NCBI GenBank assembly: GCA_964583975.1
Contig: CAZOXU010000011.1
Span: forward strand, 1-61,311
Source of the DNA: an uncultured Planctomycetales bacterium
Lineage (GTDB): Bacteria; Omnitrophota; Gorgyraeia; Zapsychrales; Fredricksoniimonadaceae
Length of the DNA: 61,311 nt
Direction of reading: 5' to 3'
The notes beneath the pieces were generated by a model. That model worked only from the letters and a program-made list of their open reading frames with translations. It was not told where the DNA came from and searched no databases. How positions within the stretch are numbered: position 1 is the first letter of the stretch; every line of letters starts with the position of its first letter. The translations under genes were made by a program, and so were the position numbers. Shown piece by piece: positions 1-61,311 of the stretch.

Positions 1-24
1 CCTTCAACCGCGATTCCACCACAT
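1..24. repeat. Terminal direct repeat, copy 1 (ccttcaaccgcgattccaccacat), identical to 61288..61311
   Basis: The first 24 nt of the window exactly equal the last 24 nt. Confidence 0.95.
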
Positions 25-616
25 ACGCTGTCCCTGCCTCGGCGTTCTCGTAAACCACCGCCTTCTCTGGAACGATCCACACCTTGTTAAAGGTATTCAC
101 TGGTATATTGGTTGTGTTGTACTTACTTTGGGCCTCTTCATAGATTCTCTTCCAAAACTTCTTTCCCACTTCATCTTCTGGATAAATGAGCGAGGCAGTG
201 ATTTGTTTGAGCATGTAGTCTTCTGCCAACAAATCTCGGCCCATCTCCGTTAAACCAAAGCTCTCTGGCACGATACGGTCTTTTTCGTAGGGAGATAGAT
301 TAACCCAGAGATCTCGCTCTGGCACGGTAAGGCTGGCGAGGAAATATTTGATGAGTCGATTGGCTTCATCATGTAGGGGCACAGCATGCTGTGCCCCTAC
401 ATCGCCCTGATCCATAATAAATTCAAATTGAAATGGATTATCCGGATGGACCTTGATGCCTTTCAAGATGGCTGGATTGACAGCGGGGCTGAGACTGACT
501 CGGACACCGGGTGTGGGTAAACGAATTTCCTGGGCCGAGGCAGGCAAAGGCCCAAAGGTATTAATTAAGAAAGCCACAAGGATGGCTATGTGGATTAATG
601 GGGTCGGTTTTCTCAT
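1..616 (-). CDS. 5' part (about 205 codons) of a giant-exoprotein family gene: signal peptide plus conserved N-terminal module; the ORF runs off the window start
   Basis: My own translation from the ATG at 616..614 reads MRKPTPLIHIAILVAFLINTFGPLPASAQEIRLPTPG...LWVNLSPYEKDRIVPE...NTFNKVWIVPEKAVVYENAEAGTAYVVESRLK. There is no stop before position 1. By eye it is clearly homologous to residues ~40-215 of the 33305..38098 protein. It is absent from the supplied ORF track because it has no stop in the window. Confidence 0.8.
   Translation of the reverse strand, partial: MRKPTPLIHIAILVAFLINTFGPLPASAQEIRLPTPGVRVSLSPAVNPAILKGIKVHPDNPFQFEFIMDQGDVGAQHAVPLHDEANRLIKYFLASLTVPERDLWVNLSPYEKDRIVPESFGLTEMGRDLLAEDYMLKQITASLIYPEDEVGKKFWKRIYEEAQSKYNTTNIPVNTFNKVWIVPEKAVVYENAEAGTAYVVESRLK
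373..400. repeat. 28-nt perfect GC-rich palindrome GTAGGGGCACAGCATGCTGTGCCCCTAC inside coding sequence
   Basis: The sequence is its own reverse complement. It shares the GTAGGGGC...GCCCCTAC termini with the 59-nt elements at 60939 and 61188. It encodes VGAQHAVPL in frame in a variable loop of the N-terminal module. Confidence 0.9.
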
Positions 617-691
617 ATCTATATAAAGTAAAGCATATATATTTTAGAAATCAAGACCTGGAAGCCTAATCTAAGATAACGCTTTCTTTAT

Positions 692-17813: not shown

Positions 17814-17874
17814 CTTCTCTCCTTAAGTATATCATGAAACAATTCCCCCTTTCAAAGGCAGGGGTCAAGCCTGA

Positions 17875-18750: not shown

Positions 18751-18774
18751 AAGATAATCCAATCAAACGAGTTA

Positions 18775-18792
18775 ACCTGCCGGCAGGCAGGT
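18775..18792. repeat. Intergenic GC-rich hairpin ACCTGCC-GGCA-GGCAGGT (same CCTGCC/GGCAGG core as 16068 and 23395)
   Basis: 7-bp perfect inverted repeat with a 4-nt loop in an otherwise AT-rich spacer between the methyltransferase gene and hisG. Confidence 0.7.
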
Positions 18793-18826
18793 AAAAATTT
18801 TAGGCCTCGATTATAGCAAACGAATA

Positions 18827-38098: not shown

Positions 38099-38257
38099 TC
38101 ATAATCTCCATAAAATAGATTCATAAATGGGAAAAACTAAGAACTAATTAAATATGCTGAAAGTATAACATACTCTTATCAAAAATCCAACCTATGGACT
38201 ATTCATAATAAGATGTAAAGTATTGAAATATAACATCTTATAGAAATATCAATTAAA

Positions 38258-39826: not shown

Positions 39827-39828
39827 TA

Positions 39829-40182
39829 TTATGAGGCAAATTCAGTTTTTAGTTTGGCTGTATTAGCTTTAATTTCTTCAAATTGACCATCAATGGTTTT
39901 GGTTAAATCAACCATCCCATCGGTGCTATTGGCCCTGGCTAACTGTTCAAGTTTAAGACACGAATCATACATACGTTTAGCTGAAATATTTCCAGAAGCA
40001 CCTTTCATGGAATGAGCCACCTCTTTGATCTTAGTAAAATCGCTGGCTGAGACTGCCTCTCCCAGATCTTTGCGCTTATTTACAAAATCCTCGATATAAA
40101 TATCTAGTAACTCTAAAAGCAATTCTTTGTCATCCTGGACTCTGTCTAACACATCTTTTAAATCAATGATATCTTCTGCCAT
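39829..40182 (-). CDS. Histidine phosphotransfer (Hpt) protein
   Basis: 117 aa with the HSMKGASGNISA phospho-His motif. Confidence 0.8.
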   Translation of the reverse strand: MAEDIIDLKDVLDRVQDDKELLLELLDIYIEDFVNKRKDLGEAVSASDFTKIKEVAHSMKGASGNISAKRMYDSCLKLEQLARANSTDGMVDLTKTIDGQFEEIKANTAKLKTEFAS

Positions 40183-40186
40183 AACA

Positions 40187-41788
40187 TTACCCTTTCAATC
40201 TTTGAGATACTAAGGTTACTATTTCATTATAAAGCAAACTGCGATCAATTGGTTTTGATACATAACCATCCATTCCACCTGCTATATAACGCTCACGATC
40301 ACCAGCCATGGCATTAGCCGTCATGGCAATAATCGGGATATGTAAACCTGTCTGTTTCTCTTCTCGACGAATAACTTGGGTTGCAGCTACGCCATCTAAA
40401 ACAGGCATGTGATCATCCATCAAAATAACATCAAAAGATTGCTTAGCAAGAAGGTCTAAAACTTCTTGTCCGTTAGTGACTGCTGTCACCTGCCAACCAA
40501 ATTTCTCTAAGGTCTTCATCGCCACCCGTTGGTTAACCATATTGTCTTCGGCTAACAAGATGCGTATATTCTTCACTTCTTCGGGGATAGATTCACCGTC
40601 TACAGCTTTCCTTGTATCTGACTGCGATTTCTTATTAAGCTCTGGATTAAAACCAAAAATAATGGTGAAACGAAATGTACTGCCTTTACCTTCAATGCTT
40701 TCCACCACAATCGATCCACGCATCATCTCGACAAGTTTTTTGCAAATCGCTAACCCTAACCCAGTTCCCCCATAACGACGGGCCGTAGTATTATGGGCTT
40801 CTGTAAAAACGTCAAAAATAGTGTCTAAGTTCTTCTTAGGGATACCAATTCCCTGATCGATCACATCAAACTTAACCACACAATCTTTTTCAGAAATAGA
40901 TTCCATTTTCACAATAACTTCAACCTTACCCTTGTGTGTAAACTTCACTGCGTTGCTGACTAAATTAACCAAAATCTGACGAAGCCTGACCGGATCTCCC
41001 ATTAAAATACGTGGAATTTGCGGATCAATAGTCCAAACCAGATCGATTTGTTTATTGCGAGCTAAAACAGCCAGACCTTTGCAAATATTTTTAATAATGT
41101 CTGGAACTTGAATCTCCATCTCTTCAATAACCACCTTGCCTGCTTCGGCACGAGAAAGGTCCAAAATATCATTAATGAGACTTAAAAGATTCTGAGCTGA
41201 ATCCTTAGCAACCACCAAATTATCTTTTTGTTCCTCGGATAAAGCAGTATCTAGCGTTAAATCCAACATCCCAATGACCGCATTCATAGGTGTACGAACT
41301 TCATGCGACATCTTGGCTAGAAATACACTCTTAGCATGATTCGCTTCTTCAGCGATCAATTTGGCTTGGACTAATTCTTGTTCGGCTAGTTTTTGCTTAG
41401 ATATGTCGTAGAGAATACCGATGGAACCAACAATATCTCCCTTGCTGTTCTTAAGGACGGCAACAGAAGCGTTGATATCTAATAAGGAACCATCCCGACG
41501 AATGACCTGGGTATTGATATCAGAAAGCATGCCCTTCTTGCGGATATCTAACGCTCGGATACGTTTCCATTCTACTTCGGGGTAAAGATCTTGGACGGGT
41601 TTGTTGAAAAGATCACTGCCACTCATTCCAAACATTCGCTCTGCCATCTGATTCCAAGCGACGATGCGTTCTTGAGCATCGGTCACCGTGATAGCTGAGG
41701 GAGAGTTTTCGAAAATAATTCGAAACATCTCCTTCGACTGCAAAACATCATCGTCTATCTGGTTTTGAGCGCTTTTTTTATGGATCAT
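40187..41788 (-). CDS. Hybrid sensor histidine kinase (PAS - HisKA - HATPase_c - REC)
   Basis: PAS region, H-box MSHEVRTPMNAV, N/G boxes (NLVSNAVKFT, DQGIGI, GGTGLGLAI) and a C-terminal receiver (ILLAEDN...ILMDDHMPVLDG...KP). Confidence 0.9.
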   Translation of the reverse strand: MIHKKSAQNQIDDDVLQSKEMFRIIFENSPSAITVTDAQERIVAWNQMAERMFGMSGSDLFNKPVQDLYPEVEWKRIRALDIRKKGMLSDINTQVIRRDGSLLDINASVAVLKNSKGDIVGSIGILYDISKQKLAEQELVQAKLIAEEANHAKSVFLAKMSHEVRTPMNAVIGMLDLTLDTALSEEQKDNLVVAKDSAQNLLSLINDILDLSRAEAGKVVIEEMEIQVPDIIKNICKGLAVLARNKQIDLVWTIDPQIPRILMGDPVRLRQILVNLVSNAVKFTHKGKVEVIVKMESISEKDCVVKFDVIDQGIGIPKKNLDTIFDVFTEAHNTTARRYGGTGLGLAICKKLVEMMRGSIVVESIEGKGSTFRFTIIFGFNPELNKKSQSDTRKAVDGESIPEEVKNIRILLAEDNMVNQRVAMKTLEKFGWQVTAVTNGQEVLDLLAKQSFDVILMDDHMPVLDGVAATQVIRREEKQTGLHIPIIAMTANAMAGDRERYIAGGMDGYVSKPIDRSLLYNEIVTLVSQRLKG

Positions 41789-41867
41789 AATTTGAGCATT
41801 AATCTATTTCCAATTTGACTCATCATATCATTGAAATTACAACCCAACAAACACAGATACAAACTTT

Positions 41868-42476
41868 TTAACGTTCAAACTTAACAACATTTTGCCACCA
41901 GGAATGGCTGTCCCATTTTAAAGCAGCCTTCCAAAGGGCTTTGGCTGTCCGAGTTTTAAGATGACTAGGCGCTCGGTTGAAAAATGTTTTAGCAACCGGA
42001 TAACCATTATCTAAATATTCTTTGGCCTGAATGAGGCATTCTAAAATATCCGCGTCGCGAGCCACGATACTTTCACGGGTCTTTTGTTGATCATACGATT
42101 TGCGCAAATCAGAAAGAGCAGCTTTAAACTTGACGTTGAGATCTTTGATTTGGTCTGCAAAAACCTTTTGTTCGGCGTTACGAAAATCAATATAGTAGTG
42201 ACCCATTTTATGTAAATCATTAATACGAGCTTCATGTATGTCATTAAATAGAGTCATGGCAACCACCTTGGCAGGATCAACACCTTCACAAAAGGCAATG
42301 TAATAGCCAATCACCGCACAGCGAAAACAATGCTCGGCCACGGTTTCAGGATTTTCAATACCAGCCACCCACCAGCCACTTCGTTTGACTCTCTTTAATA
42401 AGCCTGCTTCGGCAAAGAAATTAAGAGCGTTGACGGACGATTTCGTAGCAGAAGATGCTCGATGCGTGCGCGACAT
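41868..42476 (-). CDS. HD-domain phosphohydrolase (YfbR-like)
   Basis: LKRVKRSGWWVAGIENPETVAEHCFR and NDIHEARINDL motifs. The start is uncertain (ATG at 42476 or 42494), and either start overlaps the upstream gene by 56-74 nt. Confidence 0.72.
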   Translation of the reverse strand: MSRTHRASSATKSSVNALNFFAEAGLLKRVKRSGWWVAGIENPETVAEHCFRCAVIGYYIAFCEGVDPAKVVAMTLFNDIHEARINDLHKMGHYYIDFRNAEQKVFADQIKDLNVKFKAALSDLRKSYDQQKTRESIVARDADILECLIQAKEYLDNGYPVAKTFFNRAPSHLKTRTAKALWKAALKWDSHSWWQNVVKFER

Positions 42477-43137
42477 TAAGCGACATCCTTTCATGTTTCA
42501 TAGGGATCACAACTTCCTGATCCAATCTTTTTCTAATAATTTCCCGCACCCCTTTGTCTTCTGATCCTAAAACCAAGCCTAAAGGAAACTGTAACTTAAC
42601 ATCAAATACCGATTTGCCTTCCTTAGTTGAGGTGCCCATGATCCAAAAGCCAAGTTTCTTGGCTTTTTCAATAGCATTACCTAAATTTGATACGCGAGCA
42701 ACTGTGACAAAATTATCGCCTCCACAGGCCACCCTTAGAACTGTTTCTGTCACTCCTACTGATTCTGTAGTTGGCAATACAATGGCAAAACCACCCAAAC
42801 TGCCACAGGTACGCATAATTCCACCAAGATTTTGAGGGTCGGTCAAATTATCCAAGAAAATAACTGACCATCGTTTATCAATAGCCATTGGCAATAAATC
42901 ATCAATATTCATATAAGGAAATTCGTCAACTTCGGCAATGATTCCCTGACTATTCAAATTACGAGCAAGCTTCTGGATTTTGGTATAGGGCACAGCTGAA
43001 ACAGCGAAGCCAAATTGTTTGCCTTTCATATGGATATAAGATGATTCGCTGTGTCCCTGTTCAATGAGGACCATTTTAATACTTTTGGGATTAGTTTTAA
43101 TTCTCTCTAAAACTGGATTCTTTCCGTAGAGTTTCAT
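42421..43137 (-). CDS. RlmB-like 23S rRNA 2'-O-methyltransferase (SpoU family)
   Basis: The start is set at MKLYGKNPVLERIK. SpoU motifs TDPQNLGGIMRTC, LGSEDKGV and IPMKHERMSLNVA. Confidence 0.85.
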   Translation of the reverse strand: MKLYGKNPVLERIKTNPKSIKMVLIEQGHSESSYIHMKGKQFGFAVSAVPYTKIQKLARNLNSQGIIAEVDEFPYMNIDDLLPMAIDKRWSVIFLDNLTDPQNLGGIMRTCGSLGGFAIVLPTTESVGVTETVLRVACGGDNFVTVARVSNLGNAIEKAKKLGFWIMGTSTKEGKSVFDVKLQFPLGLVLGSEDKGVREIIRKRLDQEVVIPMKHERMSLNVAHASSIFCYEIVRQRS

Positions 43138-43145
43138 AAATTCCT

Positions 43146-43883
43146 TTATTTTTTGATGCCTAATTTCAAATAAAACAATGGTTTTAAAATGCTCCACCAG
43201 CTAATTAACGGAGTCATTTTTGTATACCCACCTAATTGTTTGGGCGGATAGATCTTGGTTACAAACGCTTCCTTAAATTTAAATTTAAGTGTAACAACCT
43301 TCCAAAGAATATAGGGTTCGAGCTCATAGGTATTCAACCATTCCTGGCGCAAATTAATACGTGGATCATCAAAGATTGAAAGGCGGATTGCACGAAAACC
43401 ATTGGTCGTATCCGTTACCTTGCGTCCAGTTAAAATTGAAAATACCCATGGATGAAGACGTGTGGCTAATTTTCTATAAAACGGCATCTGTCCTCCCGAG
43501 CCAACCTTACCTAAATAACGCGACCCTTGGATCAAATCATAGCCTTCATTGATAATAGGCCCAATAACTACAGGAATTTCTTGTGGGTTATCCTTATCAT
43601 TGCCAGCCATAATAACAATAATATCATAGTTGGCGCTACGTCCATGCTCAATGGCGGTACGAATAGCTGCCCCAACCCCGCTACGTTTAGCATGCTTGAT
43701 TGTCTGCACACCACGGTCTTTATATTCAGCAATCATTTCGGTTGTGCCATCATCAGAACCATCATCTACAATCAAATAGTCCATCTTGCCCAAGAAACCA
43801 GTCTTGAGAAATCTCTCGATGACACTACGTAATTTGACTTGCTCATTAAAAGCTACAGGACAGACCAAAATTTTAGAAGCCAT
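43146..43883 (-). CDS. Family 2 glycosyltransferase (polyprenyl-phosphate sugar synthase-like, DPM1/ArnC type)
   Basis: ILVCPVAFNE, the IVDDGSDDGT DxD region, and a size and single C-terminal hydrophobic region typical of the type. Confidence 0.82.
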   Translation of the reverse strand: MASKILVCPVAFNEQVKLRSVIERFLKTGFLGKMDYLIVDDGSDDGTTEMIAEYKDRGVQTIKHAKRSGVGAAIRTAIEHGRSANYDIIVIMAGNDKDNPQEIPVVIGPIINEGYDLIQGSRYLGKVGSGGQMPFYRKLATRLHPWVFSILTGRKVTDTTNGFRAIRLSIFDDPRINLRQEWLNTYELEPYILWKVVTLKFKFKEAFVTKIYPPKQLGGYTKMTPLISWWSILKPLFYLKLGIKK

Positions 43884-43886
43884 AAA

Positions 43887-44444
43887 TCAATTCTTAGGAA
43901 TTAAATGATTTTTGTCGATTGAATAGCTTAACCCACAGCTACAAAACAAATCATCATTGAGTTTGCGGCCACAACGACAGGCATATCCAATCAATTGGGC
44001 AGGGTTACCAACAACAATAGTATACGCAGCAACATTCTTGGTCACCACACAACCAGCACCTATCACCGCATACTCTTCGATCGTGACGCCACACAGAATG
44101 GTAGAATTGGCCCCCAAGGTCGACCCTTTTTTAACCATGGTTTTTTCTAAAACCCAGGCATCTTTGCGATTGCTGCGAGGATAGCGATCATTGATGAAGG
44201 TGGTATGGGCTCCAATAAAAACATCATCTTCAATAGTTACACCATTAAACACTTCCACGCCATTTTTTATTGTCACATGATTGCCAATAACGGCGCCTGA
44301 CTCGATGAAACAACCATCGCAAATGTTGCAATGTTCGCCAATCACAGCTCCTTCGAGCACATTGGCAAAAGCCCAGATGCGCGTGTGATCACCAATCTTA
44401 GCTTTAGGATGGACAAGGGCGTTTTCATGTTTGAAGAAACTCAT
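43887..44444 (-). CDS. Hexapeptide-repeat sugar N-acetyltransferase (WbpD/WlbB-like)
   Basis: Left-handed beta-helix repeats throughout. The N-terminus [23 protein letters not shown] resembles WbpD-type enzymes. It lies adjacent to a WbpB-like oxidoreductase. Confidence 0.75.
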
Positions 44445-45460
44445 AGTTTAACCAACTCCCCCTTGCGATTAATCGATTCAGTAATAGCCACCAAGGTACG
44501 AACTACATCGTAAGCCTTTTGAGCATTGGCAATTTCAGGGTCTTTGTGGTTCGCAATGCAATCGACGAAATACAAGGCTTGATTCTTTAAAGGTTCATTG
44601 ATCCCAATCTTTGGGATCATAATACTTCCTTCACGCGACAAAAGTTGAAATTCACCGTAGGTAGCGTAATACACATCGGTTTTCTCGACATGCTTATCAT
44701 AAAGCCTGATAGGCCCTTCAATGTCCAAATCATCCCATGTCACCATTTTCTTATCGCCCACAATAATGATATCGCGCACCTTCTTGGGATCCAACCAGCT
44801 GACGTGAATATTGACCATAATATTATTAGGATAATCTAAGGTTGCAAAAGCTAGGTCTTCTAATTTACCACCTAAACATTTATGCCCACGGGCCGAGACA
44901 CTGATCGGTGGTGAATCAAATAGATAATTAAAAATAGAAATATCATGGGGCGCTAAATCCCACAGAGCATTGACATCATAACGAAAAGGACCAAGATTAG
45001 TACGTTGCGAATTAGCATAATGCACCTTACCTAATTCACCCTTTTGGATATACTCTCGAAGTTTGACAACCCCTTGGTTAAATACAAAAATATGACCAAC
45101 CATCAGCAATTTCTTCTGCTTTTGGGCCAATTCTTTTAATTCAAGACATTCTTGGGAAGAAAGCGAGAGAGGTTTCTCACACAACACATGCTTGCCTGCT
45201 AAAAGCGCTTCTCGAGTAACTTGGACGTGATAATTAGTTGGGACAGCAACAACAACGGCATCAATGGTTGGATTATTAAGAATATCTTCATAATTTTTGA
45301 CTGCTTGAATTTGAGGATAGAGCGCTGACATGGAAGCCAGACGTCGCTCATCAAGGTCAGCACACATCAGTACTTTCGAACCGGGTAACTGTGAAAAAAT
45401 ACGAATATGATTGGGGCCCCAATGTCCACAACCGATAACACCGATAGAAATCATATGCAA
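44441..45460 (-). CDS. Gfo/Idh/MocA-family sugar oxidoreductase (WbpB-like)
   Basis: Rossmann N-terminus [13 protein letters not shown], the EKP motif (VLCEKPL) and a C-terminal alpha/beta domain. Confidence 0.83.
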
Positions 45461-45523
45461 ATTATACTGAAACTGGCCTCGGCCGCAAACTATTTATTCG
45501 GCATATTCTCAATGACCTTTTAC

Positions 45524-45552
45524 TTGCATTGCAAGACTTAAGCCAGTAGAAT
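45524..45552 (+). promoter_or_regulatory. Candidate sigma70 promoter giving a leaderless mRNA for the 45559 gene
   Basis: TTGCAT (45524..45529), a 17-nt spacer, then TAGAAT (45547..45552). The ATG begins 7 nt after the -10 element and there is no Shine-Dalgarno sequence. Confidence 0.4.
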
Positions 45553-45558
45553 CCCCCC

Positions 45559-45972
45559 ATGCATCAAACGGTTGCCATTTTATTAAGCCTCTGTATCGTC
45601 TTTAATGTTTACACGTTGGGCTCGCAAGTCATCCAACATCAACAACAGCCTTCCAATATGCAATTTCACAATTTGGGAGATCAATTTAAAGAAATCGCGC
45701 CGCTTTTTAATAAAATATCCAAAGCAGGTTATTATACGGATAAAGATACTAATATACCGGTCGTAATTGCTCAGTTTGAGCAAGCCCAATATCACCTTGC
45801 CCCTACTATTTTGGACCTTAATAATACTGATTACCCTTTAGTTATTTTTGACTGCACCTTACCAGCGATTGCTTTAACTAAAATGCGAGAACTAGGGCTT
45901 CAACCTATTAAAGCCAATAAATTTGGAACCATTTTGGCCGTAAACCCAAAATTTAGTGAATTAAAACCATGA
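45559..45972 (+). CDS. Hypothetical secreted protein
   Basis: 137 aa with an N-terminal signal-like segment (VAILLSLCIVFNVYTLGS). Its end overlaps the downstream start (ATGA). I recognise no family. Confidence 0.55.
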   Translation: MHQTVAILLSLCIVFNVYTLGSQVIQHQQQPSNMQFHNLGDQFKEIAPLFNKISKAGYYTDKDTNIPVVIAQFEQAQYHLAPTILDLNNTDYPLVIFDCTLPAIALTKMRELGLQPIKANKFGTILAVNPKFSELKP

Positions 45973-47261
45973 TGTATCTTTTAGCACTTACCATTGCAGT
46001 CTCAATTGGCGTTTTAGCGATCCGACTTATCACTCAAAATCGCCTAGCTCGGGAATTAAATTTCTTTCTGGGGGCTGCCTTAGGATTAGGCATCACTAGT
46101 CAGATCATCTTCTACGTGCAGCTGGTTGGCTATAACTTCAATCATTTCCTGCCCGTAGCCATTAGCTTTGCTCTTTTAGGCGTCTTATTATGGCTTAACA
46201 AAACTAGTGCCAGGCACCAGATTCCTAGACATCCACAAAAAAACTGGTGCCTGGCACTAGTTTTATCTGCCGTAGCTATTCCTTTGTGGCTTGAAGCTAA
46301 TCACTATCCCCTAGGTGGCTGGGATGCTTGGTCGTGCTGGAATTTAAAATCCAAATTCATCTACCTAGGGGAACATGCTTGGAAGGATATGTTTGATCCT
46401 GTTTTGTGGCGCAGCAATACGGGTTATCCTTTGGCCCTACCAACACTAAATGTCTGGTTCTGGCAATGGACGGGATGGACCCAGCAAGTAAGCATGTACA
46501 ATGCCATTGTTATAACCCTATTAAATGCTGGAGTTTTGCTTTCGGGTCTTTGCGTACTTGGAGTGTCTACACTTTATGCATCCTTAATCACCTTTTGTAT
46601 ATTCACTCTGAGTTTTGGCAATACTCTGTGCATCAGTCAGTATAGTGACATCCTTTTTAGCCTTTATCTACTTTCTGCATTTGTTTGCTATTTTTATTTT
46701 GAAAAATCTAAAGACAATCGCCTGCTAATACTGACTGCTATTTTCATTGGATTACTCAGTTTTACTAAGAATGAAGGAATTGCAGCCTCTGGCATCTTAA
46801 GCTTACTTATTCTTCTACGTCGCCCCCAGCCATGGTTATTCATCATTGCCTTAGTAATTTCAGCTCTGCCAACTATTATCTTCACCCTTACCATGGCTCC
46901 ACATGGTGGGGTTTTTATTAATGGTTTACTGTCGGCGGATCACCCTTCAAGCGGATCAAGACTTATTTATATTCTGACAAATACCTTATACGAATTTATT
47001 TCTATGAAATGGGCCGGACTTTGGATCATCGCAGCCATAGGACTGACTCTTTCGAAAGGCCGATCTTTAAAACAACCCTTGGTCACGGTTGGTCTATTTA
47101 TGATCTGCTTCTTGACCGTTACCTTAACTTACTATCAAATCAACACCTTCTTTGATGATATCCGATGGTGGATGGACAATACACTCAATCGCATTGTCTT
47201 TGCGCTCATGCCGAGTGTATTTCTTTGGATGGGTTTAAGTCTTTTTAAGAAGGACGCTTGA
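45969..47261 (+). CDS. Polytopic integral membrane protein, possibly a GT-C-type glycosyltransferase
   Basis: 430 aa with about 11-12 hydrophobic helices and aromatic-rich loops. The function is inferred only from topology and from the neighbouring GT2 and sugar-modification genes. Confidence 0.5.
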   Translation: MMYLLALTIAVSIGVLAIRLITQNRLARELNFFLGAALGLGITSQIIFYVQLVGYNFNHFLPVAISFALLGVLLWLNKTSARHQIPRHPQKNWCLALVLSAVAIPLWLEANHYPLGGWDAWSCWNLKSKFIYLGEHAWKDMFDPVLWRSNTGYPLALPTLNVWFWQWTGWTQQVSMYNAIVITLLNAGVLLSGLCVLGVSTLYASLITFCIFTLSFGNTLCISQYSDILFSLYLLSAFVCYFYFEKSKDNRLLILTAIFIGLLSFTKNEGIAASGILSLLILLRRPQPWLFIIALVISALPTIIFTLTMAPHGGVFINGLLSADHPSSGSRLIYILTNTLYEFISMKWAGLWIIAAIGLTLSKGRSLKQPLVTVGLFMICFLTVTLTYYQINTFFDDIRWWMDNTLNRIVFALMPSVFLWMGLSLFKKDA

Positions 47262-47724
47262 TTTTCTTAATCTTATAATTAAGAGTTCCCGCAGGCACCT
47301 TGATGGCCAAGGTGTCTTTTTCTTTATGTCCTAATAATGCTTTTCCAATGGGAGAAAAAATAGAAATTTTATTTTCTTCGTAGCTAGCTTCTTCGGGAGA
47401 GACAAGCATGTAGGTCAACTCTTCGTCGTTATCTAAATCTTCTAACGTAACAATGGCGCCAATAAATACTTTATCAGAAGGGATATTTTCATTTTCAATA
47501 ATACGAACATTGGCTAGTTGCGCTTCTAACGTGGCAATGCGAGCTTCATTGTGTGCCTGCGCATCTTTCGCTGCATCATATTCAGCATTTTCAGAGATAT
47601 CTCCTTGCGCACGTGCCTCGCCAATAGCCTTGGCAATTTTCTGACGTTCAGTTGTCTTTAAAACTTCCAACTGTTCTTGTATTTTTTGAAAACCTTTTCG
47701 AGTTAAATAAACTTCATTTCCCAT
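47245..47724 (-). CDS. greA: Transcription elongation factor GreA
   Basis: The start is set at MGNEVYLTRKGFQKIQEQLEVLK. Acidic finger tip GDISENAEYDAAK. Confidence 0.9.
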   Translation of the reverse strand: MGNEVYLTRKGFQKIQEQLEVLKTTERQKIAKAIGEARAQGDISENAEYDAAKDAQAHNEARIATLEAQLANVRIIENENIPSDKVFIGAIVTLEDLDNDEELTYMLVSPEEASYEENKISIFSPIGKALLGHKEKDTLAIKVPAGTLNYKIKKIKRPS

Positions 47725-47806
47725 AAATTCACCTCTGGTTAATAAAAACATATCCCGCTTCAAAATATAAGCGGGATATTGTCAAACCTCTGCTTCGATC
47801 AAATAA

Positions 47807-48037
47807 TTACATTGTTGCAATAGCTTTGGTCAAAATAGGAGCAACAGCAATTGCTTCATCTTTGGATAAACGGCCAAGTTTCGTATAGCTCCAAGCCCCA
47901 TCAATTAAATTTTCGCGGCTTATTTGCAATTTTTTAGGCGCACCATTGTATGAAAAAACACCGACAGTCAAACGAGTATTCTCAAAATCAAGCACTTCTT
48001 TGAAGGTTGAAGCATCTAAACTGGCATCATAAGGCAT
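47807..48037 (-). CDS. Small conserved hypothetical protein, possibly a PC4/YdbC-like ssDNA-binding fold
   Basis: 76 aa. The pattern VFSYNGAPKKLQISRENLIDGAWSYTKLGRLSKDEA is reminiscent of PC4-like K-x-I-S/D-IRE...G...KKGI-L proteins. The family call is weak. Confidence 0.4.
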   Translation of the reverse strand: MPYDASLDASTFKEVLDFENTRLTVGVFSYNGAPKKLQISRENLIDGAWSYTKLGRLSKDEAIAVAPILTKAIATM

Positions 48038-48062
48038 ATCTTTTATCCTTTCAAACTGGTTA

Positions 48063-54889: not shown

Positions 54890-57800
54890 TTATGATGCCG
54901 CTGCCAGCTGGGTGACTGGTGTCTGGGTACTGATCCCTAAAAACTTCCTGAGATCAGTCATGGGCTGGATATTGATAATCACGGGATAAAAACCTGGGGC
55001 GTTTTGCAGTTGGGCAAGCTGTGCTGGGTCTAAATTAAACTTTATACCTCCATTAGCATTTTGGGTTTGTAGAAATTTGTCAGAGGTAAGGTCAATACCA
55101 CCTTTTTTGATCATTGCGCTATCTCTGACTAATGAACCTTTCTTAAATAAACTTGAAGCATTAGTCATAGCCGCATCTTCTGCCTTAGACATATCTAAAA
55201 TCTTCGGAAGGATTTCAACACCCAAAGACAATATTCCTGACAGATGCGCGCTAGGCGATCCTGGAATACCTTTTCCTTGAAAATAACTCGGCGGCTTTCC
55301 TAAAGAGCCGAAAAGTCTCTGACTATCTTCGGCAGGCGTCAACTCATCATCTACGACAGTGGCAAGCAAAACATTCTGACCATCCTTGGATGGCACTGCA
55401 GAAGCCAATTGATCCAAGTTTAAATCTCTCATAACTGAATCGACATCTTCTGGAACGAGCCCTTTTTGACGGAATAATTCTTGAATACCCGCATATCGAT
55501 CTCCCTGACTCCAAAGAAGGTGAGAATAATTAACGATAGGGACTATTGTGAAAAGATTTCGCACTAATGGATCTATCAGGTAGGTGCTTGTTGCCACACT
55601 ACCCGTAATGCTTTGCCCTGTTACAGATATTCTAGAGGGATCTATTTCTGGACGATCAGCAAGCCATCGTACAGAAACCAAGGTATCGGCAATCGATTGC
55701 ATAATAAAAGTTTTAAACTTTTCTGCATCAAAATCCAAAGCCACATATCGTTGTACAGAATTCATTCCTTGTGTTCCAGCAGCTGAACGTTTAGCGTATA
55801 AAGGCATTCCTACTTCCAATACCGCAACGCCTTTGCTAGCTAAATAAATAGAAATAAGACGGGCCAGCGTATCTTGTTCATAAAAACTACACAAAACGAC
55901 TCCGGGTAAAAGTTTTCCATCAGTTGTTTTAGGAAGGAAATATCTCGCATAAACATGTTCTGAATTAGGAAAGGCGGATTTATTAAAGGCAGATCGATAG
56001 GTTAGTTCTTGAATAGAAAACGGCTGAGCTTCAGGTGGAGATGTCTTTAATCTTTCTACCATTTGAAGCAGATCAGCAAGCAAAGGAGAATTTTTCATCA
56101 ATTTCTTTAACTGACCGAGAATATAATTAAGAGCTGCATCATCAGTTAAGGCCAAAATTTCTTCTTGTGTCAATGAGCGCAATTGATAATCAACGGTGTT
56201 AATATTTCCCTGAGGATCTCGATCTATCTTTAAATTCGTATCAGTTGGAAGAAATGCGATGTTCTGAGATAGATTTAAACCTGTTAGTTGAGATAATTCT
56301 TCTACAACATCTCTACCTTGTGCCATCGCAGCATCTTGCTTAGGATCGCTCTCCGCTTCCCAATTACCTTTAAAATCTGGAACGACTTCAAAATCATAAT
56401 CAAAAATGTCAAAAGTAATGGTTGATTCAATTAATACCGGTACTGGAAACTCTCCTTCGCGAGAGGGCGCCAACCATTGTAAATCAAAATTTCCAAGAAC
56501 ATCTTGGTCTAAATGAATACCCACCTTATTCAAACGTGCGACAAGAAGTTGAAAATCATGCCGAATGAGTTCATAAACATACGTTTGAAATTCTTCCCAT
56601 CTATTAGGATCTATTCCATAGGCCGCTAAGACATCACGATACCTTTCATCTTCTTTCAACAAGTCATAAGCTTGTTCACGTCCAGAATTATTGGAAAAGA
56701 ACGAAGAACTACCGATACGGGTACTCTGAATCCAGGATGGAGATCTAGAAAAATCTGGATCAGGTTCAAACTTACCGGTTTTTAAATTTCCTCGAAATAA
56801 AAAACGACTTTCGTAAGATTTTCCGTCTAATTTAAAAGCGTTAAAAACAGATTCCATTCCTCCAGAATCATAAATTCTTTCATTCAAAACAACTAATTTC
56901 CATAAACCATCTAAAATCTCAACGGCATCGGTTGTTGAGGTATCTAATGTAAAATGCATACTGTTTAAATCTGGGTCTCTATAAGGAGTAATTTTGTAGT
57001 TATCAAAATACTTAATGACTTTCTCTTGATAAGGATCTTGAAATGAAGGTGAATTGGTATAAGAAAATGTGATGGTCAGATTAGAATCTTTTCCTTTATG
57101 AATATAAAAAATTCCTCTTCCATAGGAACCCGTGTTGGGTTTGAAAATAACTGGCAAAGAAATCTCACCAGACACAATTTGTTGGGCTACTTCTCTAAAA
57201 TTAGCGACATCTCTTGGGTCTGTTAAAGCTTGTAAATAGGATTCGTCTGAAAAACGCATTTCGTCTAATTCTTGAATCACATCAGAATCTCTTTTAAAAG
57301 CAACAAACCAATCGGGCTGACGAACCTTACCGCCCTTAAGTAATTCCCTCATCCCCCACTTACTAGCCAAAAGTCGCTGTATATCAAGAATACTAACCTT
57401 GGCGCTTTGCATTGCTGCATCAACTTTGTAAACTTCTCGCTTCATAGAATCATAAAAAACCGGCTCAGCATTACTCAACTTCTTCCTTCTCCAATTGATG
57501 ATTCCCACTTGAGGGTCAACCATAGATTGGACACCTAGATTAACCATAAGGGCACTCGCTTGAATGCTATGGACAAAAGCTACAACGATGATCTTCCTTC
57601 CTCCATTAAATTTCTTTCTTAATTTCATCCTAGCTTTAAAATCATCCAATCCTTTCTTAGTTCGAATCAGAAGATTTAAATAACTTTCCGAAGGAGAATG
57701 ACCTGAAATACTAGGTAATGTTGCAGTCGCATCCATGCCTCTATTAAAACGATATAAGAACTCTCGCACACCTCTTCCTTCTTTTTGAATATCTGCTACC

Positions 57801-60800
57801 CCTTTTTCATCGAGCAATCCCAAGGATATCTCATCTAAAAAGCTTTCCACATTTGGTTCAATCTTATGCCCTGTTTTATCTTTAACTAGATCCAGAAAAT
57901 CTTGGGCAGTTTGTTGAGTACGATCTTTGGAACTAGTTATAACAACCACATCTGCATTAGATTCAATGTCAGGCCTTAGTTTAGAAAACAAAATCTTTGC
58001 CCCCGCTAGTGACTGTTCCTTACCTTTTAGAGTTAATAAATTTCTTCTTCCTGGAATTAAAATACCTGCATTAGAGTATGTTTGCCCATGTCTTTCCCAA
58101 TAAAAACTAAAATCATCTTGCGAAATTGAAACAAGAGGATCTATTCCATTGAATTTAATTTGACCAGATCCATTAACTAAAACCTTCTCATCTAACTCTT
58201 TTAAGGGTTTCCATTCCGATGGTCTGAGTAAATAAAATCGTGAGATTCCTTTAAAATTTCTCAATACCACCTCTCCTAATTTAATTTCATTAGGATTAAT
58301 TTTCGCAAATCGAATACGCAGCACCGCACCGTCTTCATCTCGCAAAACATCCCTTCTGTCTAAAAGACTCACCTCCGCTTCAGGATGAATTTTCTGAGCA
58401 TAAGAACGCATACTTAATAGACCTTCACCTTTTCCTCCAATTCTGTGATTACCAGCTAACTTTTGAGCTAATTTCTCTTCAGTAGTTTCAGCCTCTTTGA
58501 TAGATAATCCATTGTTTACTACATCAATATTTACAAAACCATCTTTTTCATAAACATAAAAATCAATTTTTAAACTTTTGTTGTCTGGTATTTTACCAAT
58601 GTCTATTCCATGTATAAAAGCATCCGCAGAATTTTCTATGGCATGAATAAATATAGATTCTAACAAAGAAACCACAAGTCTTTGATGACCGTCTTTATGG
58701 ACGACCAGCATTTTCTGGGATCCAAAATCTGAACTCTGATTTCCTAAAATAGAGGCAATTTTGTGATCCATAGGAAGGACGATTTCTTCTAATCTTCCCC
58801 ATACTCTTTGTAGTCCTTCTTTTTTAGAAAGGCTGGTTAATATTGGGAAATCTTCTTTAGAAAATTCGATCGTTCCTAAAGAAAATAACTTTTCCGCCTC
58901 CATCGCTGCATCTTTTGTGGTCGATCTTAATAAGGATTCCAAATCTTGTCTTACGCTCTTATCTTTAGGATCAAGCTCTATTGCTTTTCGAAAGGCCGCT
59001 TCTGCCCTCTTAAAATCATGTAACTTGGTTAGCACGCGTCCAAGACTTTTATAGGCATTTGTATACCGGGGGCTCTCTTCTATTGCTTTTAAATAAGCCT
59101 CCTCCGCTCCTTCTAAGTCACCTTTATTTTCCAATAAAAATCCTAAATTGTAACGTAGCCAAGAATTTCTTGAATCAAGCTTTATGCCTGTTCGAAAAGA
59201 CGCTTCAGCTCGTGCTAAATCACCCTTCTTCATCAATAGAAGTCCAAGATTGTTATAAGCGATTTGGTATTTAGGATTTATCTTTAATGCTGTTAAATAT
59301 GCTGTTTCAGCTCCTGTTAAATCACCTTTACTGTCTAACAAATCCCCTAAAGAAACGTATGCACTCATATCTTTAGGATCAAGCTCTATTTCTTTATGAT
59401 GCGCAGCCTCTGCTCCTGCCAAGTCTCCTTTATGCATCAGAAAAATTCCTAAATTCTGATAAAAACTTCCAATTATTCCTAATTGCCACGGTAAAATCCT
59501 AACAACCTGCAAATCATTCTTTCCTTTAAAATCAAATGTTAAACCTTCATTAGAGATATCTTTTTCGATTGGCAATTTCACAATAAAACTAAAATCTAAT
59601 TCTCCCGAAGGCCTCAACTCCTCAGAAGGTTCTGCGATATAGTATCGTCCATCAGATAACCTAACTAATATAAAGACATGATCTATTTCTGAAACCAGGT
59701 AAACCTTCTTAATTCCAATTGCATCCAAGTACAATGCCATTAAAGCACTTCTGCCGACACAATTAATTTCCTTAGTAAGTCGTATCCGAATTGGAGAGGC
59801 TTCATTTAAAGCAGAATAATCTTTATCTGTCCACCCGTGCATTTTGATAATTAACCGCATAATTTTATTGATGGCTTGGATTTCAAGCTCTGCACCAGCT
59901 AAAGGCGATCTCTCTCTTGCCTTTTGTATTTCTGCCTTTAATTGCTCTGTATCAATCTGATCAAAACGCTTAGCTTTCCTTTGAAACCCAAACGACTCTA
60001 ATGAAGAGAGCTTTGGTGACTCATTCTTAGATCTTGCTAAATCTTCTTTTAATAAATGCATCCCTCTTAAATAAGTTTGATTTTCTATATCAATCTGGAC
60101 ATGGCGTACGGTCAATTGAATGGCTTTGGTCATAAGAGTCTGCAGCTCATCAAGTTTCTGTGAATCTTTTAACCCAAGCCATTCTTTAATCTCTCTTTCT
60201 TGCTCCAAATCTAGGGGCTTTTGATTTGAAGAAACATGATCCACATGAAATCCATCCGGGATTTTCAAGTCACTATTGTCTTGAGCCAAAATGTATCCTA
60301 AAGCATCAAATAGACCAATAACCTGTTCATGTTCTTGAGTTTTTTGATTCTCATATCTCTGAGCCAAATACCTTGCAGCGTCTCTAAACTTTCCAGAAAT
60401 TCTAGGCAAGGTTCGTTCCTTATCGCTCAAAGGAAGATCCCTAATCTTTTGTGTTAATTCTATAGTTTCTTTAACGTTTATGTCTTCTGGCAACTTGAAA
60501 TGATAAAAAATTTCCCCATTGGTATTCGCAAGCTTTTCAGGTACTAGAAAATCAACCGCTTCTTGACCTCGCGGAACAAATTGCACAACAATATGATCTG
60601 TTAATGGCAGCCAGGCGTATTGATCCTTCTGTCCTTTCTGCGAGCCCGCAAAACGCTTGCGTTCTTGCTCAGTTTCCCATACTGGTTTACTTAAAACTTG
60701 ATCAAGTTTAACTTCTATTCTCATTTTCCCTGCAAGACTAGTCATGGCCGAATCACCAATCACAGATGGGTCTTGACTAATTCTCATAGCTTGAGAAGGT

Positions 60801-61311
60801 TGCAACAACATTCCTCCAGAGAAATATTTGCGAGGCACAGGCTGCTGGGTTATAGGATCAGGCTCTTCTTTGATGTAGTTGTACACGCCTTTTTTGAATG
60901 CTTGGAGGTACCGTTGATAAATTGATTCAACATCCTCGGTAGGGGCAGGCCCCTGTGCCTGCCCGGCTTGAGGGCGACCACGGGGGGTCGCCCCTACGAT
61001 TTTATTCTTATCCGTATACACCCGAGCCAGGATGCTGTCCTTTATTTTCTTCTTGTACCACGTAGCTAGGATTAAAGAATTGTAAACTTGTCTAAGTTGG
61101 GCGAAGTTTTGTCCTTCATTGACTTCGCGGGTGAGTTCGGGGATGACGATTTCACGGATGATGTTATTTCCCAATATATTGGTATCCGTAGGGGCAGGCC
61201 CCTGTGCCTGCCCTTCTTGAGGGCGACCACGGGGGGTCGCCCCTACACCGTTTTTGGATTCCGATAAATAATCTGCCTCTAGCATCACCTTCAACCGCGA
61301 TTCCACCACAT
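54890..61311 (-). CDS. Giant modular exoprotein 2 (>2,139 aa, 5' end off the window edge and apparently continued at 616..1): shared N-module, unknown region, transglutaminase-like Cys protease, TPR, GHKL ATPase-like, histidine phosphatase, ATP-grasp-like, alpha/beta hydrolase-like, shared C-module
   Basis: Uninterrupted 6.4-kb ORF open at the window end. The first codon in the track is an edge GTG, not a real start. Its N- and C-terminal modules are homologous to the 33305..38098 protein. Confidence 0.88.
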   Translation of the reverse strand, partial: VVESRLKVMLEADYLSESKNGVGATPRGRPQEGQAQGPAPTDTNILGNNIIREIVIPELTREVNEGQNFAQLRQVYNSLILATWYKKKIKDSILARVYTDKNKIVGATPRGRPQAGQAQGPAPTEDVESIYQRYLQAFKKGVYNYIKEEPDPITQQPVPRKYFSGGMLLQPSQAMRISQDPSVIGDSAMTSLAGKMRIEVKLDQVLSKPVWETEQERKRFAGSQKGQKDQYAWLPLTDHIVVQFVPRGQEAVDFLVPEKLANTNGEIFYHFKLPEDINVKETIELTQKIRDLPLSDKERTLPRISGKFRDAARYLAQRYENQKTQEHEQVIGLFDALGYILAQDNSDLKIPDGFHVDHVSSNQKPLDLEQEREIKEWLGLKDSQKLDELQTLMTKAIQLTVRHVQIDIENQTYLRGMHLLKEDLARSKNESPKLSSLESFGFQRKAKRFDQIDTEQLKAEIQKARERSPLAGAELEIQAINKIMRLIIKMHGWTDKDYSALNEASPIRIRLTKEINCVGRSALMALYLDAIGIKKVYLVSEIDHVFILVRLSDGRYYIAEPSEELRPSGELDFSFIVKLPIEKDISNEGLTFDFKGKNDLQVVRILPWQLGIIGSFYQNLGIFLMHKGDLAGAEAAHHKEIELDPKDMSAYVSLGDLLDSKGDLTGAETAYLTALKINPKYQIAYNNLGLLLMKKGDLARAEASFRTGIKLDSRNSWLRYNLGFLLENKGDLEGAEEAYLKAIEESPRYTNAYKSLGRVLTKLHDFKRAEAAFRKAIELDPKDKSVRQDLESLLRSTTKDAAMEAEKLFSLGTIEFSKEDFPILTSLSKKEGLQRVWGRLEEIVLPMDHKIASILGNQSSDFGSQKMLVVHKDGHQRLVVSLLESIFIHAIENSADAFIHGIDIGKIPDNKSLKIDFYVYEKDGFVNIDVVNNGLSIKEAETTEEKLAQKLAGNHRIGGKGEGLLSMRSYAQKIHPEAEVSLLDRRDVLRDEDGAVLRIRFAKINPNEIKLGEVVLRNFKGISRFYLLRPSEWKPLKELDEKVLVNGSGQIKFNGIDPLVSISQDDFSFYWERHGQTYSNAGILIPGRRNLLTLKGKEQSLAGAKILFSKLRPDIESNADVVVITSSKDRTQQTAQDFLDLVKDKTGHKIEPNVESFLDEISLGLLDEKGVADIQKEGRGVREFLYRFNRGMDATATLPSISGHSPSESYLNLLIRTKKGLDDFKARMKLRKKFNGGRKIIVVAFVHSIQASALMVNLGVQSMVDPQVGIINWRRKKLSNAEPVFYDSMKREVYKVDAAMQSAKVSILDIQRLLASKWGMRELLKGGKVRQPDWFVAFKRDSDVIQELDEMRFSDESYLQALTDPRDVANFREVAQQIVSGEISLPVIFKPNTGSYGRGIFYIHKGKDSNLTITFSYTNSPSFQDPYQEKVIKYFDNYKITPYRDPDLNSMHFTLDTSTTDAVEILDGLWKLVVLNERIYDSGGMESVFNAFKLDGKSYESRFLFRGNLKTGKFEPDPDFSRSPSWIQSTRIGSSSFFSNNSGREQAYDLLKEDERYRDVLAAYGIDPNRWEEFQTYVYELIRHDFQLLVARLNKVGIHLDQDVLGNFDLQWLAPSREGEFPVPVLIESTITFDIFDYDFEVVPDFKGNWEAESDPKQDAAMAQGRDVVEELSQLTGLNLSQNIAFLPTDTNLKIDRDPQGNINTVDYQLRSLTQEEILALTDDAALNYILGQLKKLMKNSPLLADLLQMVERLKTSPPEAQPFSIQELTYRSAFNKSAFPNSEHVYARYFLPKTTDGKLLPGVVLCSFYEQDTLARLISIYLASKGVAVLEVGMPLYAKRSAAGTQGMNSVQRYVALDFDAEKFKTFIMQSIADTLVSVRWLADRPEIDPSRISVTGQSITGSVATSTYLIDPLVRNLFTIVPIVNYSHLLWSQGDRYAGIQELFRQKGLVPEDVDSVMRDLNLDQLASAVPSKDGQNVLLATVVDDELTPAEDSQRLFGSLGKPPSYFQGKGIPGSPSAHLSGILSLGVEILPKILDMSKAEDAAMTNASSLFKKGSLVRDSAMIKKGGIDLTSDKFLQTQNANGGIKFNLDPAQLAQLQNAPGFYPVIINIQPMTDLRKFLGISTQTPVTQLAAAS
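55310..55942 (-). other. Alpha/beta-hydrolase-like domain in giant protein 2
   Basis: LLPGVVLCSFYEQ..., the IDPSRISVTGQSITGSVA nucleophile-elbow-like segment, and the later VVDDELTP. Confidence 0.42.
56390..57172 (-). other. ATP-grasp-like domain in giant protein 2
   Basis: LPVIFKPNTGSYGRGIFYI (K-P-x-x-G-S-x-G-x-GI) followed by a ~250-aa alpha/beta region. Weak, motif-level only. Confidence 0.4.
57515..58117 (-). other. Histidine phosphatase (phosphoglycerate-mutase-like) domain in giant protein 2
   Basis: The FYWERHGQTYSN RHG motif, with a downstream IVVAFVHSIQASAL second-His region. Confidence 0.5.
58385..58657 (-). other. GHKL (HATPase_c-like) ATP-binding domain in giant protein 2
   Basis: N-box-like IHAIENSADA, G1-like VVNNGLSI and G2-like GGKGEGLLSM, in the canonical order. 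Confidence 0.45.
58940..59482 (-). other. Five to six tandem TPR repeats in giant protein 2
   Basis: Recurrent 34-aa units: GDLAGAEAAHHKEIELDPKD, GDLTGAETAYLTALKINPKY, GDLARAEASFRTGIKLDSRN, GDLEGAEEAYLKAIEESPRY, HDFKRAEAAFRKAIELDPKD. Confidence 0.85.
59636..59830 (-). other. Transglutaminase-like / papain-fold cysteine protease core in giant protein 2
   Basis: INCVGRSALMALYLDAIGI (Cys517) ... IDHVFILVRLSDGRYYIAEP (His544, then an acidic residue). This is the typical C-H-D/E spacing of transglutaminase-like domains. Confidence 0.5.
60939..60997. repeat. 59-nt GC-rich double-hairpin element, copy A, in frame in giant gene 2
   Basis: GTAGGGGCAGGCCCCTGTGCCTGCCCGGCTTGAGGGCGACCACGGGGGGTCGCCCCTAC. 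Stems GGGCAGGC/GCCTGCCC and GGGCGACC/GGTCGCCC, with terminal inverted repeats GTAGGGG/CCCCTAC. It encodes VGATPRGRPQAGQAQGPAPT. Confidence 0.92.
61188..61246. repeat. 59-nt GC-rich double-hairpin element, copy B, in frame in giant gene 2
   Basis: Identical to copy A except for 2 nt in the linker (CCCTTCTTGAGG versus CCCGGCTTGAGG). It encodes VGATPRGRPQEGQAQGPAPT. Confidence 0.92.
61288..61311. repeat. Terminal direct repeat, copy 2, identical to 1..24
   Basis: The last 24 nt of the window exactly equal the first 24 nt. Confidence 0.95.

Follow-up and report, generated by a model that had tools for sequence, protein, structure and literature searches.

A conserved protein module of about 65 residues ends two giant proteins encoded in a 61,311-nucleotide stretch of DNA from an uncultured Omnitrophota bacterium (contig CAZOXU010000011.1 of assembly GCA_964583975.1, positions 1 to 61,311, carrying a Planctomycetales label), hereafter the window. 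We show that this C-terminal module is strictly terminal, is coupled to a conserved N-terminal domain (N-domain) in the same proteins, is under purifying selection, and is kept when the domains between the two ends (the cargo) are swapped. The feature resembles a terminal signal or bookend on modular exoproteins, and the phylum-wide family to which it belongs is undescribed. Our best single guess at its role is sorting or targeting.

Judged from their translations, the tails of the two proteins, giant 1 and giant 2, are similar far beyond chance. The earlier note had aligned these tails; its coordinates prove exact and the peptides it quoted match the translations. In giant 2, the shared tail comprises the last 77 residues (DSAMIKKGGIDL...LAAAS; 54893..55123, minus strand, stop codon at 54890-54892). 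In giant 1, it comprises the last 81 residues (DNAMATKNDDTKGGIDL...LLAKV; 33308..33550, minus strand, stop codon at 33305-33307). The two are 42% identical over 60 residues (BLASTP, E 4e-7, single comparison). Among all open reading frames (ORFs) of the window, only giants 1 and 2 contain GGIDL followed by PVIxNIxP in a six-frame motif scan, and no meaningful ORF lies on the opposite strand.

Homologues of the module are abundant and always C-terminal. A profile built from the two sequences returned 38 proteins in a word-indexed search, in all of which the module lies 10-34 residues from the end. An exhaustive profile search of 1.84 billion cluster representatives gave 5157 matches at E<=1e-3 and 2044 at E<=1e-10. 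Among the 150 best representatives, which range from 72 to 2927 aa, every match ends within 24 residues of the C-terminus; 141 of these were newly returned by the exhaustive search, and all end 0-24 residues past the hidden Markov model (HMM) match. The module HMM was also run over every stop-to-stop ORF of the window and of 90 fetched loci (91 sources), yielding 95 module-bearing ORFs. All 95 carry the module at the extreme C-terminus, with 0-53 residues after the match, and no internal module reached a significant score in the window or the 90 loci. The small, conserved, extreme C-terminal element that the earlier note had proposed from two sequences is therefore borne out in 95 of 95 ORFs and 150 of 150 best representatives. 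The note had also said what would count against a sorting signal, namely a module restricted to these two proteins and internal elsewhere; instead, it sits on thousands of proteins, and those examined have no internal copies. Chance similarity or a low-complexity artefact between two long ORFs, for which nothing but the short alignment speaks, is refuted by the BLASTP E-value, the 38 and 5157 profile matches, and the 95 C-terminal ORFs.

On sequence evidence, the bookended family appears to be confined to Omnitrophota. Within representative GTDB genomes, the module occurs in 10 loci, of which six are labelled Omnitrophota, three Planctomycetales, and one Tangfeifania; the labels of the latter four metagenome-assembled genomes (MAGs) are probably wrong. 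Copies are often in tandem: 23 of the 91 sources carry at least two family members, and one MAG has at least 10 copies. Small stand-alone module proteins (42-141 aa) were set aside as fragments from short contigs or frameshifted nanopore contigs. Two long carriers without an N-domain were examined, and both are cut by contig ends.

The module has a well-defined core. Its general form is GGIDL, a variable loop, I-x-F-x-h-D-P-A-h-h-x-Q-h-Q, and G-h-x-P-V-I-h-N-I-x-P-h-x-x-h-x-x-h-L-G. Across 269 unique modules, the conserved core begins at GGIDL (100/100/98/95/82%), followed by a loop of variable length and I-K-F-x-h. D-P-A (84/77/81%) then starts a short helix, the next part reads G (94%)-x-x-P (92%)-V-I (98%)-x-x-I-x-P (95%), and L-x-G (87/88%) precedes a polar tail without conservation. 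The giant 2 module runs in the order GGIDL, variable loop, IKFNLDPAQLAQLQ, NAPGFYPVIINIQP, MTDLRKFLGI, and a 13-residue polar tail, while that of giant 1 contains an internal DPAM at 33434-33445. The GGIDL...PVI-NI-P...LG core of the definition first proposed is retained, but the leading D-x-A-M is not an obligatory part of it: a search of the 40 residues upstream finds [DN]xAM for only 124 of 247 modules (0-32 residues before GGIDL).

The loop after GGIDL accepts insertions in several homologues. In P0015, P0018, P0021, P0025-P0027, P0032, and P0036, this same loop holds an in-frame insertion of the 'MDSRFRGND', 'SRLRGND', or 'ARNDT' type, which looks like a small repeat element landing in tolerated loops (compare the giant 2 N-domain, below).

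Structure prediction and database scans give the module no known relative. Its AlphaFold2 (AF2) model, built from 36 sequences, is of low confidence (pLDDT 63.6) and mostly coil, with no strands and two short helices (DPAQLAQLQ and DLRKF); the Asp of DPAQ or DPAM caps the predicted helix within the module. Scanned alone or within the full proteins, the two modules match no NCBIfam family at E<=1 and give only noise in Pfam (E 0.1 or weaker). There is also no PDB-sequence or fold match. When the modules, the N-domain, and both whole giants were run against Pfam and NCBIfam, only cargo domains were returned. No known sorting-signal model thus fits the tail, in agreement with the earlier observation that it matches none of the T9SS CTD, PEP-CTERM, or LPXTG consensus sequences.

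The proteins that carry the module are related at their other end as well. An N-domain of about 320 residues is common to both giants (46% identity, BLASTP E 3e-37) and has 1404 homologues in a word-indexed search. Those with a source name are nearly all recorded as "hypothetical protein, Candidatus Omnitrophota/Omnitrophica", and representative genomes hold at least 590 copies. The N-domain is modelled as an alpha/beta fold with long helices (AF2; pLDDT 79.9, pTM 0.76), and it has no PDB relative by fold or sequence and no Pfam or NCBIfam model. The module had been described as sitting on otherwise unrelated proteins. Their cargo is indeed very different, but every complete carrier shares the N-domain, so distribution alone does not distinguish the module from a family-specific terminal domain.

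Head and tail are the two ends of one architecture. The module ends 81 of the 92 N-domain ORFs that reach a stop inside their locus. Of the 11 exceptions, six are split genes, recognizable by the module-bearing ORF that directly follows them. Conversely, all seven 5'-bounded module ORFs that lack an N-domain are split-gene halves, six of them being those same downstream halves. Further carriers that seem to lack the N-domain or to stand alone are cut at contig edges or come from frameshifted nanopore assemblies. Giant 1 itself has signal peptide, N-domain, and module in one ORF, and giant 2 has the second half of the N-domain and the module. The two bookends were modelled separately, because a combined MAFFT alignment placed C-terminal fragments onto the N-domain. 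At locus L083, a family gene is interrupted by a single in-frame TAG (18749-18751), with the N-domain ORF (16130-18748) before it and the module ORF (18752-19084) after it; the TAG is a candidate sequencing error, pseudogene, or read-through site.

Family members also have the features of Sec-type signal peptides. By simple rules applied to 93 members, K/R precedes the uncharged run in 97%, an AxA-like site follows in 90% (e.g., ...PLAQA↓QG), and the median run is 18 residues. In this respect, they resemble the carriers of type IX secretion system (T9SS) C-terminal signals, which also bear Sec-type signal peptides. The window encodes BamA, Skp, LpxA/C/D/I, the Mla system, and a SurA-like chaperone. 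This indicates that the organism is diderm, and that export would lead first to the periplasm. In the short full-length members P0065 and P0071, a cargo of about 110 residues has a hydrophobic stretch ending ...LVALMTGL(S/F)AC, with the look of an internal lipoprotein-type signal.

Between the bookends, the cargo is hypervariable and consists of cytoplasm-type enzyme and regulatory domains. Giant 1 contains a hexokinase (Pfam E 1e-32) whose best PDB match is human hexokinase-2 (E 6e-51). Pfam and NCBIfam assign tetratricopeptide repeats (TPR), a histidine phosphatase, and an alpha/beta hydrolase to giant 2, alongside weak, sub-threshold ATP-grasp hits. In 32 relatives, Pfam finds phosphoglucose isomerase (PGI; E 6e-199), phosphoglucomutase (PGM), UDP-glucose pyrophosphorylase, and a PPDK/glucan-water-dikinase domain, as well as receiver domains, HD, methyltransferases, deaminase, CofD, GNAT, and HEAT. 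A UDPGP-like label for the second cargo of giant 1 was dropped as unsupported by Pfam or PDB, as were HATPase-like and transglutaminase-like readings of giant 2 made by eye, for which there is no HMM support.

Comparison of collinear loci shows that whole cargo cassettes are exchanged while the bookends stay in place. Gene order in locus L011 (MAG JBGAJA01) matches that of window positions 48042..33320, and its flanking genes have 57-86% protein identity. Its counterpart of giant 1 is 76% identical both in the N-domain (residues 1-365) and in the C-module (residues 1527-1597). Between these ends, there is no similarity between the 1160-aa cargo of giant 1 and the roughly 1775-aa cargo of L011, which includes PGM rather than hexokinase. 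The cargo of either giant matches none of 81 family proteins. Shared cargo blocks number 11, too few for mapping recombination breakpoints. Collinearity between the JBGAJA01 contig and the window extends for at least 30 kb, with family loci as the variable spots, and a further family gene directly follows the giant 1 counterpart in L011. At the position equivalent to window ~54800, locus L068 has three tandem members of about 1000 aa in place of giant 2.

Both bookends are conserved as protein. Nonsynonymous (pN) and synonymous (pS) divergence are 0.13 and 0.75 for the N-domain and 0.16 and 0.74 for the C-module, with pS saturated. Low pN against saturated pS indicates that protein function is what is being conserved, and that recombination arms do not account for it. 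Replacement of an entire cargo between conserved ends, together with several, often tandem, paralogues per genome, could otherwise have meant that the bookends persist mainly as DNA homology arms for cassette recombination, with the peptide having no function of its own. However, nucleotide identity is only 71%, the window paralogues are 42% identical in protein, and there are no long identical DNA tracts. The homology-arm explanation is thus largely refuted by pN/pS, and we consider it very improbable.

The close coupling of head and tail might instead reflect contact between them. The module could bind the family's own N-domain, as an intramolecular clasp or in head-to-tail chains or arrays, which would make it an assembly element and not a sorting tag. 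Their strict co-occurrence, the equal conservation of both ends in L011, and the failure of the module to fold alone in the AF2 model are consistent with such docking. WVNLSPYEKDR and PRKYFSGG, the best-conserved motifs of the N-domain, fall where its model is non-regular and of low confidence, as an unoccupied binding site might. Pairwise distances of N-domain and C-module also co-vary (Mantel r 0.54, p 0.001), but simple co-inheritance of two ends of one gene predicts the same. We regard docking as rather unlikely, though a serious contender.

Many members contain a second recurrent signature, the motif [DN]xAM. Giants 1 and 2 together contain 10 copies of D-x-A-M, and no other real ORF in the window has any. 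Per 1000 aa, the motif occurs 1.76 times across the family but 0.09 times in 531 background ORFs, an enrichment of about 20-fold. Asn may replace Asp, and the flanks are not conserved. Occurrences coincide with domain starts: DLAM occupies residues 388-391 of giant 1 and the hexokinase match runs from residue 392, while in locus L039 motifs at 507, 1147, and 1738 bracket PGI (628-1108) and PGM (1172-1586) separately. The DxAM ahead of the C-terminal module is a general inter-domain delimiter of this kind. Internal translation starts at its Met do not hold up as the main explanation: the codons vary at synonymous positions, and no purine-rich, AT-rich, or ribosome-binding signal lies upstream. 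The motif therefore acts as protein sequence. Upstream of real gene starts, the window is AT-rich, with a Shine-Dalgarno (SD)-like 4-mer in 13 of 34, and the organism seems to use weak or non-SD initiation. The delimiter is lineage-dependent, with one site each in L083 (2012 aa) and L008 (1799 aa) and 10 in the 1643 aa of L031.

This delimiter raises the possibility that the family members are polyproteins cut at [DN]xA↓M. The C-module would then be the last released piece or a protease handle, akin to a pro-peptide or degron, with no need for a role in localization. The enrichment of the motif and its placement exactly at domain starts would fit, as would its occurrence ahead of half of the modules and the module's own DPAM or DPAQ. 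An Ala at P1 resembles the sites of Ser-Lys and signal-peptidase-like proteases. Yet neither the two giants nor their neighbours contain a protease domain, and some members have no [DN]xAM outside the C-module; L083 and L008 have almost none there. The Asp of DPAQ caps a helix in the AF2 model, so the motif may be structural, and cleavage at [DN]xA↓M is a prediction from sequence. West-Roberts et al. also suspected that giant proteins of Omnitrophota are cleaved, though without knowing where (bioRxiv 10.1101/2023.11.21.568195). Overall, we consider such a processing role for the module unlikely.

No gene is consistently linked to the family loci. The earlier note had suggested looking for a co-distributed processing enzyme or secretion apparatus, and none proved to be co-located. 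All-against-all clustering of 1192 flanking ORFs revealed no recurrent partner. Among 124 immediate neighbours, no Pfam family occurs more than three times and none is immunity-like. Generic (hybrid) histidine kinases, MacB-type ABC transporters, and TPR proteins occur in 5-12 of the 90 loci.

Several known systems share part of this architecture, while none shares all of it. Nearest in function are the C-terminal domain (CTD) of T9SS cargo (Por_Secre_tail), the MARTX toxins, and polymorphic exoproteins of the TpsA/CdiA type. In the first, as here, very diverse cargo with a Sec signal ends in a conserved, cargo-independent module of fewer than 100 residues. However, our module has no match to its HMM, is from Omnitrophota rather than Bacteroidota, and occurs on carriers that also share a large N-terminal domain. 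The T9SS CTD is a seven-stranded beta-sandwich of 70-100 residues; the AF2 model of the module shows no strands, at a confidence too low to exclude such a fold. No T9SS genes were seen in the 61-kb window. Sortase and exosortase signals (LPXTG, PEP-CTERM, GlyGly-CTERM) are likewise family-wide tags at the extreme C-terminus of exported proteins. Unlike the module, sortase, exosortase, and rhombosortase signals combine a motif with a transmembrane helix and a basic cluster; the module has no such helix, its sequence PVIINIQPMTDLRKFLGISTQTP being interrupted by N, Q, D, R, and K. The modules have no uninterrupted hydrophobic stretch of about 20 residues, their tails are polar and non-basic, and there is no NCBIfam CTERM match.

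Among large exoproteins, MARTX toxins also have conserved ends that bracket a reshuffled array of enzyme domains, with short cut sites between domains. Their bookends are glycine-rich repeats and a cysteine protease domain (CPD), and they are exported by the type I secretion system (T1SS) without a Sec signal, none of which was detected here. The cargo of the family comprises metabolic enzymes (hexokinase, PGI, PGM), and not known toxins. Pfam and NCBIfam give no RTX, MARTX, or CPD match, a Sec-type signal is present, and GGIDL does not fit GGxGxD. TpsA, CdiA, and Rhs proteins similarly join a signal peptide and a conserved N-terminal domain on large exoproteins, replace cassettes at orthologous loci, and demarcate exchangeable cargo with a short motif (VENN, DPxGL). 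In those systems, however, the variable part is the C-terminal tip, accompanied by an immunity gene, whereas this family varies in its middle and has a constant C-terminus. The N-domain also differs from the beta-helix of two-partner secretion proteins such as TpsA, being alpha/beta with long helices and lacking a Pfam match or PDB relative.

The closest parallel by phylum is with the Omnitrophota giants, or Archaeovorins (bioRxiv 10.1101/2023.11.21.568195, 10.64898/2026.06.07.730766). They share the phylum, signal peptides, and suspected cleavage with our family. Their cargo is also alike, including PGM, hexokinase, HATPase_c, methyltransferase, GNAT, HD, response regulator, HEAT/TPR, and PPDK_N. 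They differ in size (10-147 thousand amino acids, kaa) and in having many transmembrane helices. The searched parts of both preprints and of the 2023 phylum survey (PMC10066038) do not mention the head domain, the tail, or [DN]xAM.

We tentatively favour the reading that the module is a targeting or translocation signal used after Sec export, although we put this somewhat below an even chance. Each member consists of a Sec-type signal peptide, the N-domain, a cargo string, the module of about 65 residues, and a short polar tail. The cargo string is made up of one or more complete domains of cytoplasmic type; in many lineages, [DN]xAM stands between them as a likely processing or module boundary. 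Given its independence of cargo, its obligatory place at the end of the chain, and the lack of predicted folding alone, the module is most likely a recognition peptide that folds on binding. Such a peptide may be read in a post-Sec handling step common to all members, which could either target or translocate the proteins past the periplasm or retain them at the envelope. Its role would be like that of a T9SS CTD or a T1SS C-terminal signal, while belonging to neither.

Several points weigh against this targeting role. Every carrier also has the N-domain, so distribution alone cannot single out the tail, and not the head, as the signal. No receptor, peptidase, or secretion apparatus is linked to the family loci, by clustering or by the Pfam census of neighbours. 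The 42% identity between the modules of giants 1 and 2 is loose for one shared receptor. The signal peptide call rests on simple rules, and the AF2 result is a low-confidence model rather than a positive prediction of disorder. Finally, no reason is obvious for exporting ATP-dependent, cytoplasm-type cargo. The sorting or anchoring signal first suggested for this tail thus keeps its main attributes (C-terminal position only, diverse cargo, no known model), but its carriers are related and no apparatus is co-located.

Three family members lie in the window, all on the minus strand (Table 1). In giant 1, the order is signal peptide, N-domain, DLAM, eukaryote-type hexokinase, three repeats of about 45 aa, DRAM, an unassigned 460-aa module, DAAM, a 73-aa module, DNAM, and C-module. 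The repeats (residues ~815-980, at window ~35160-35660) are in tandem between hexokinase and DRAM, read ..IWQQAE.xGLxRGxLLxxFxxxQSxG..L..FV.., and have no family match. Giant 2, of which residues 1-171 match N-domain HMM positions 204-350, continues from this second half of the N-domain through DSAM, an unassigned region with TPR, DAAM, and an unassigned region with His_Phos. There follow DAAM, an unassigned module with the weak ATP-grasp matches, DAAM, alpha/beta hydrolase, DAAM, DSAM, and C-module.

Table 1. Members of the bookended family in the window and their parts.
Feature	Position	Strand	Basis
Giant 1, complete, 1597 aa	33305..38098	-	translation, Pfam, motif scan
Giant 1 signal peptide (~residues 1-35, ...VRALA↓QS) and N-domain (~36-349, ending PRKYFSGG)	37052..38098	-	
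DLAM, giant 1; Pfam hexokinase match starts at next residue (392)	36926..36937	-	motif scan, Pfam
DRAM, giant 1	35150..35161	-	motif scan
DAAM, giant 1	33767..33778	-	motif scan
DNAM upstream of giant 1 module	33539..33550	-	motif scan
Giant 1 C-module, subtype B (GDFSGVRPVILNITPI...LLGL, tail ...LLAKV)	33308..33514	-	translation; HMM match residues 1527-1591 of 1597, i-E 8.2e-26
Giant 2, at least 2139 aa, N-terminus beyond right window end	54890..61311	-	translation, Pfam, motif scan
DSAM after giant 2 N-domain	60743..60754	-	motif scan
DAAM at end of TPR block, giant 2	58901..58912	-	motif scan, Pfam
DAAM, giant 2	57410..57421	-	motif scan
DAAM, giant 2	56324..56335	-	motif scan
DAAM, giant 2	55166..55177	-	motif scan
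DSAM directly upstream of giant 2 module	55112..55123	-	motif scan
Giant 2 C-module, subtype A	54893..55102	-	translation; HMM match residues 2068-2131 of 2139, i-E 3.9e-27; column conservation
Third family member: signal peptide and first half of N-domain (HMM positions 13-210), runs off left end	2..643	-	N-domain HMM i-E 8.2e-86

A 62-nt GC-rich element occurs twice, in frame, inside the giant 2 N-domain (60936-60997 and 61185-61246; 95% identical). With each copy, the protein gains 'GATPRGRPQxGQAQGPAPT' at a loop whose giant 1 counterpart is short, and the window has no further copies. Two short hairpins can be drawn by eye (GGGGCAGGCC..GGCCTGCCCC and GGGCGACC..GGTCGCCC); a repeat search listed no inverted repeat. 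The giant 2 module is followed downstream by a promoter-like site and two small ORFs, one of 106 aa with a thioredoxin-type WCGPC motif and one of 117 aa.

There is weak evidence that giant 1 is expressed. Three contigs at least 99% identical to it are present in an activated-sludge metatranscriptome (run X12; 33414-33603, 35731-35837, and 37519-37672), one of them over the module. The organism or gene occurs in wastewater, sludge, and freshwater metagenomes. Metagenome depth is higher over the conserved N-domain stretch, with many partly matching contigs, which we take to be paralogues.

Omnitrophota are widespread and uncultured, and are believed to live at the expense of other cells; the very large multi-enzyme proteins of the phylum are still puzzling. 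The phylum survey proposes a host-dependent lifestyle (PMC10066038). As speculation, cargo that needs ATP would be understandable if the destination of the proteins were another cell, which would fit such a lifestyle. The most ambitious version of this idea is that the family represents phylum-wide, Sec-exported 'effector polyproteins' of ultra-small, probably host-dependent Omnitrophota. Head and tail would drive delivery out of the cell, possibly into host or prey. A cut at [DN]xA↓M would free complete, ATP-using sugar-phosphate enzymes and regulators, cassettes would be swapped, and the same grammar may parse the giants of 10-150 kaa. We consider this whole scenario a long shot.

The N-domain, the C-module, and the [DN]xAM delimiter provide three sequence handles that together define thousands of related proteins. 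In many lineages, [DN]xAM marks domain boundaries, and it was the lack of cleavage or boundary points that blocked analysis of giant proteins, according to the 2023 preprint (bioRxiv 10.1101/2023.11.21.568195). Either bookend would be a simple annotation marker for a family now labelled 'hypothetical protein'. If the tail is a secretion or docking signal, it would be a new signal class, marking enzymes that are sent outside the cell.

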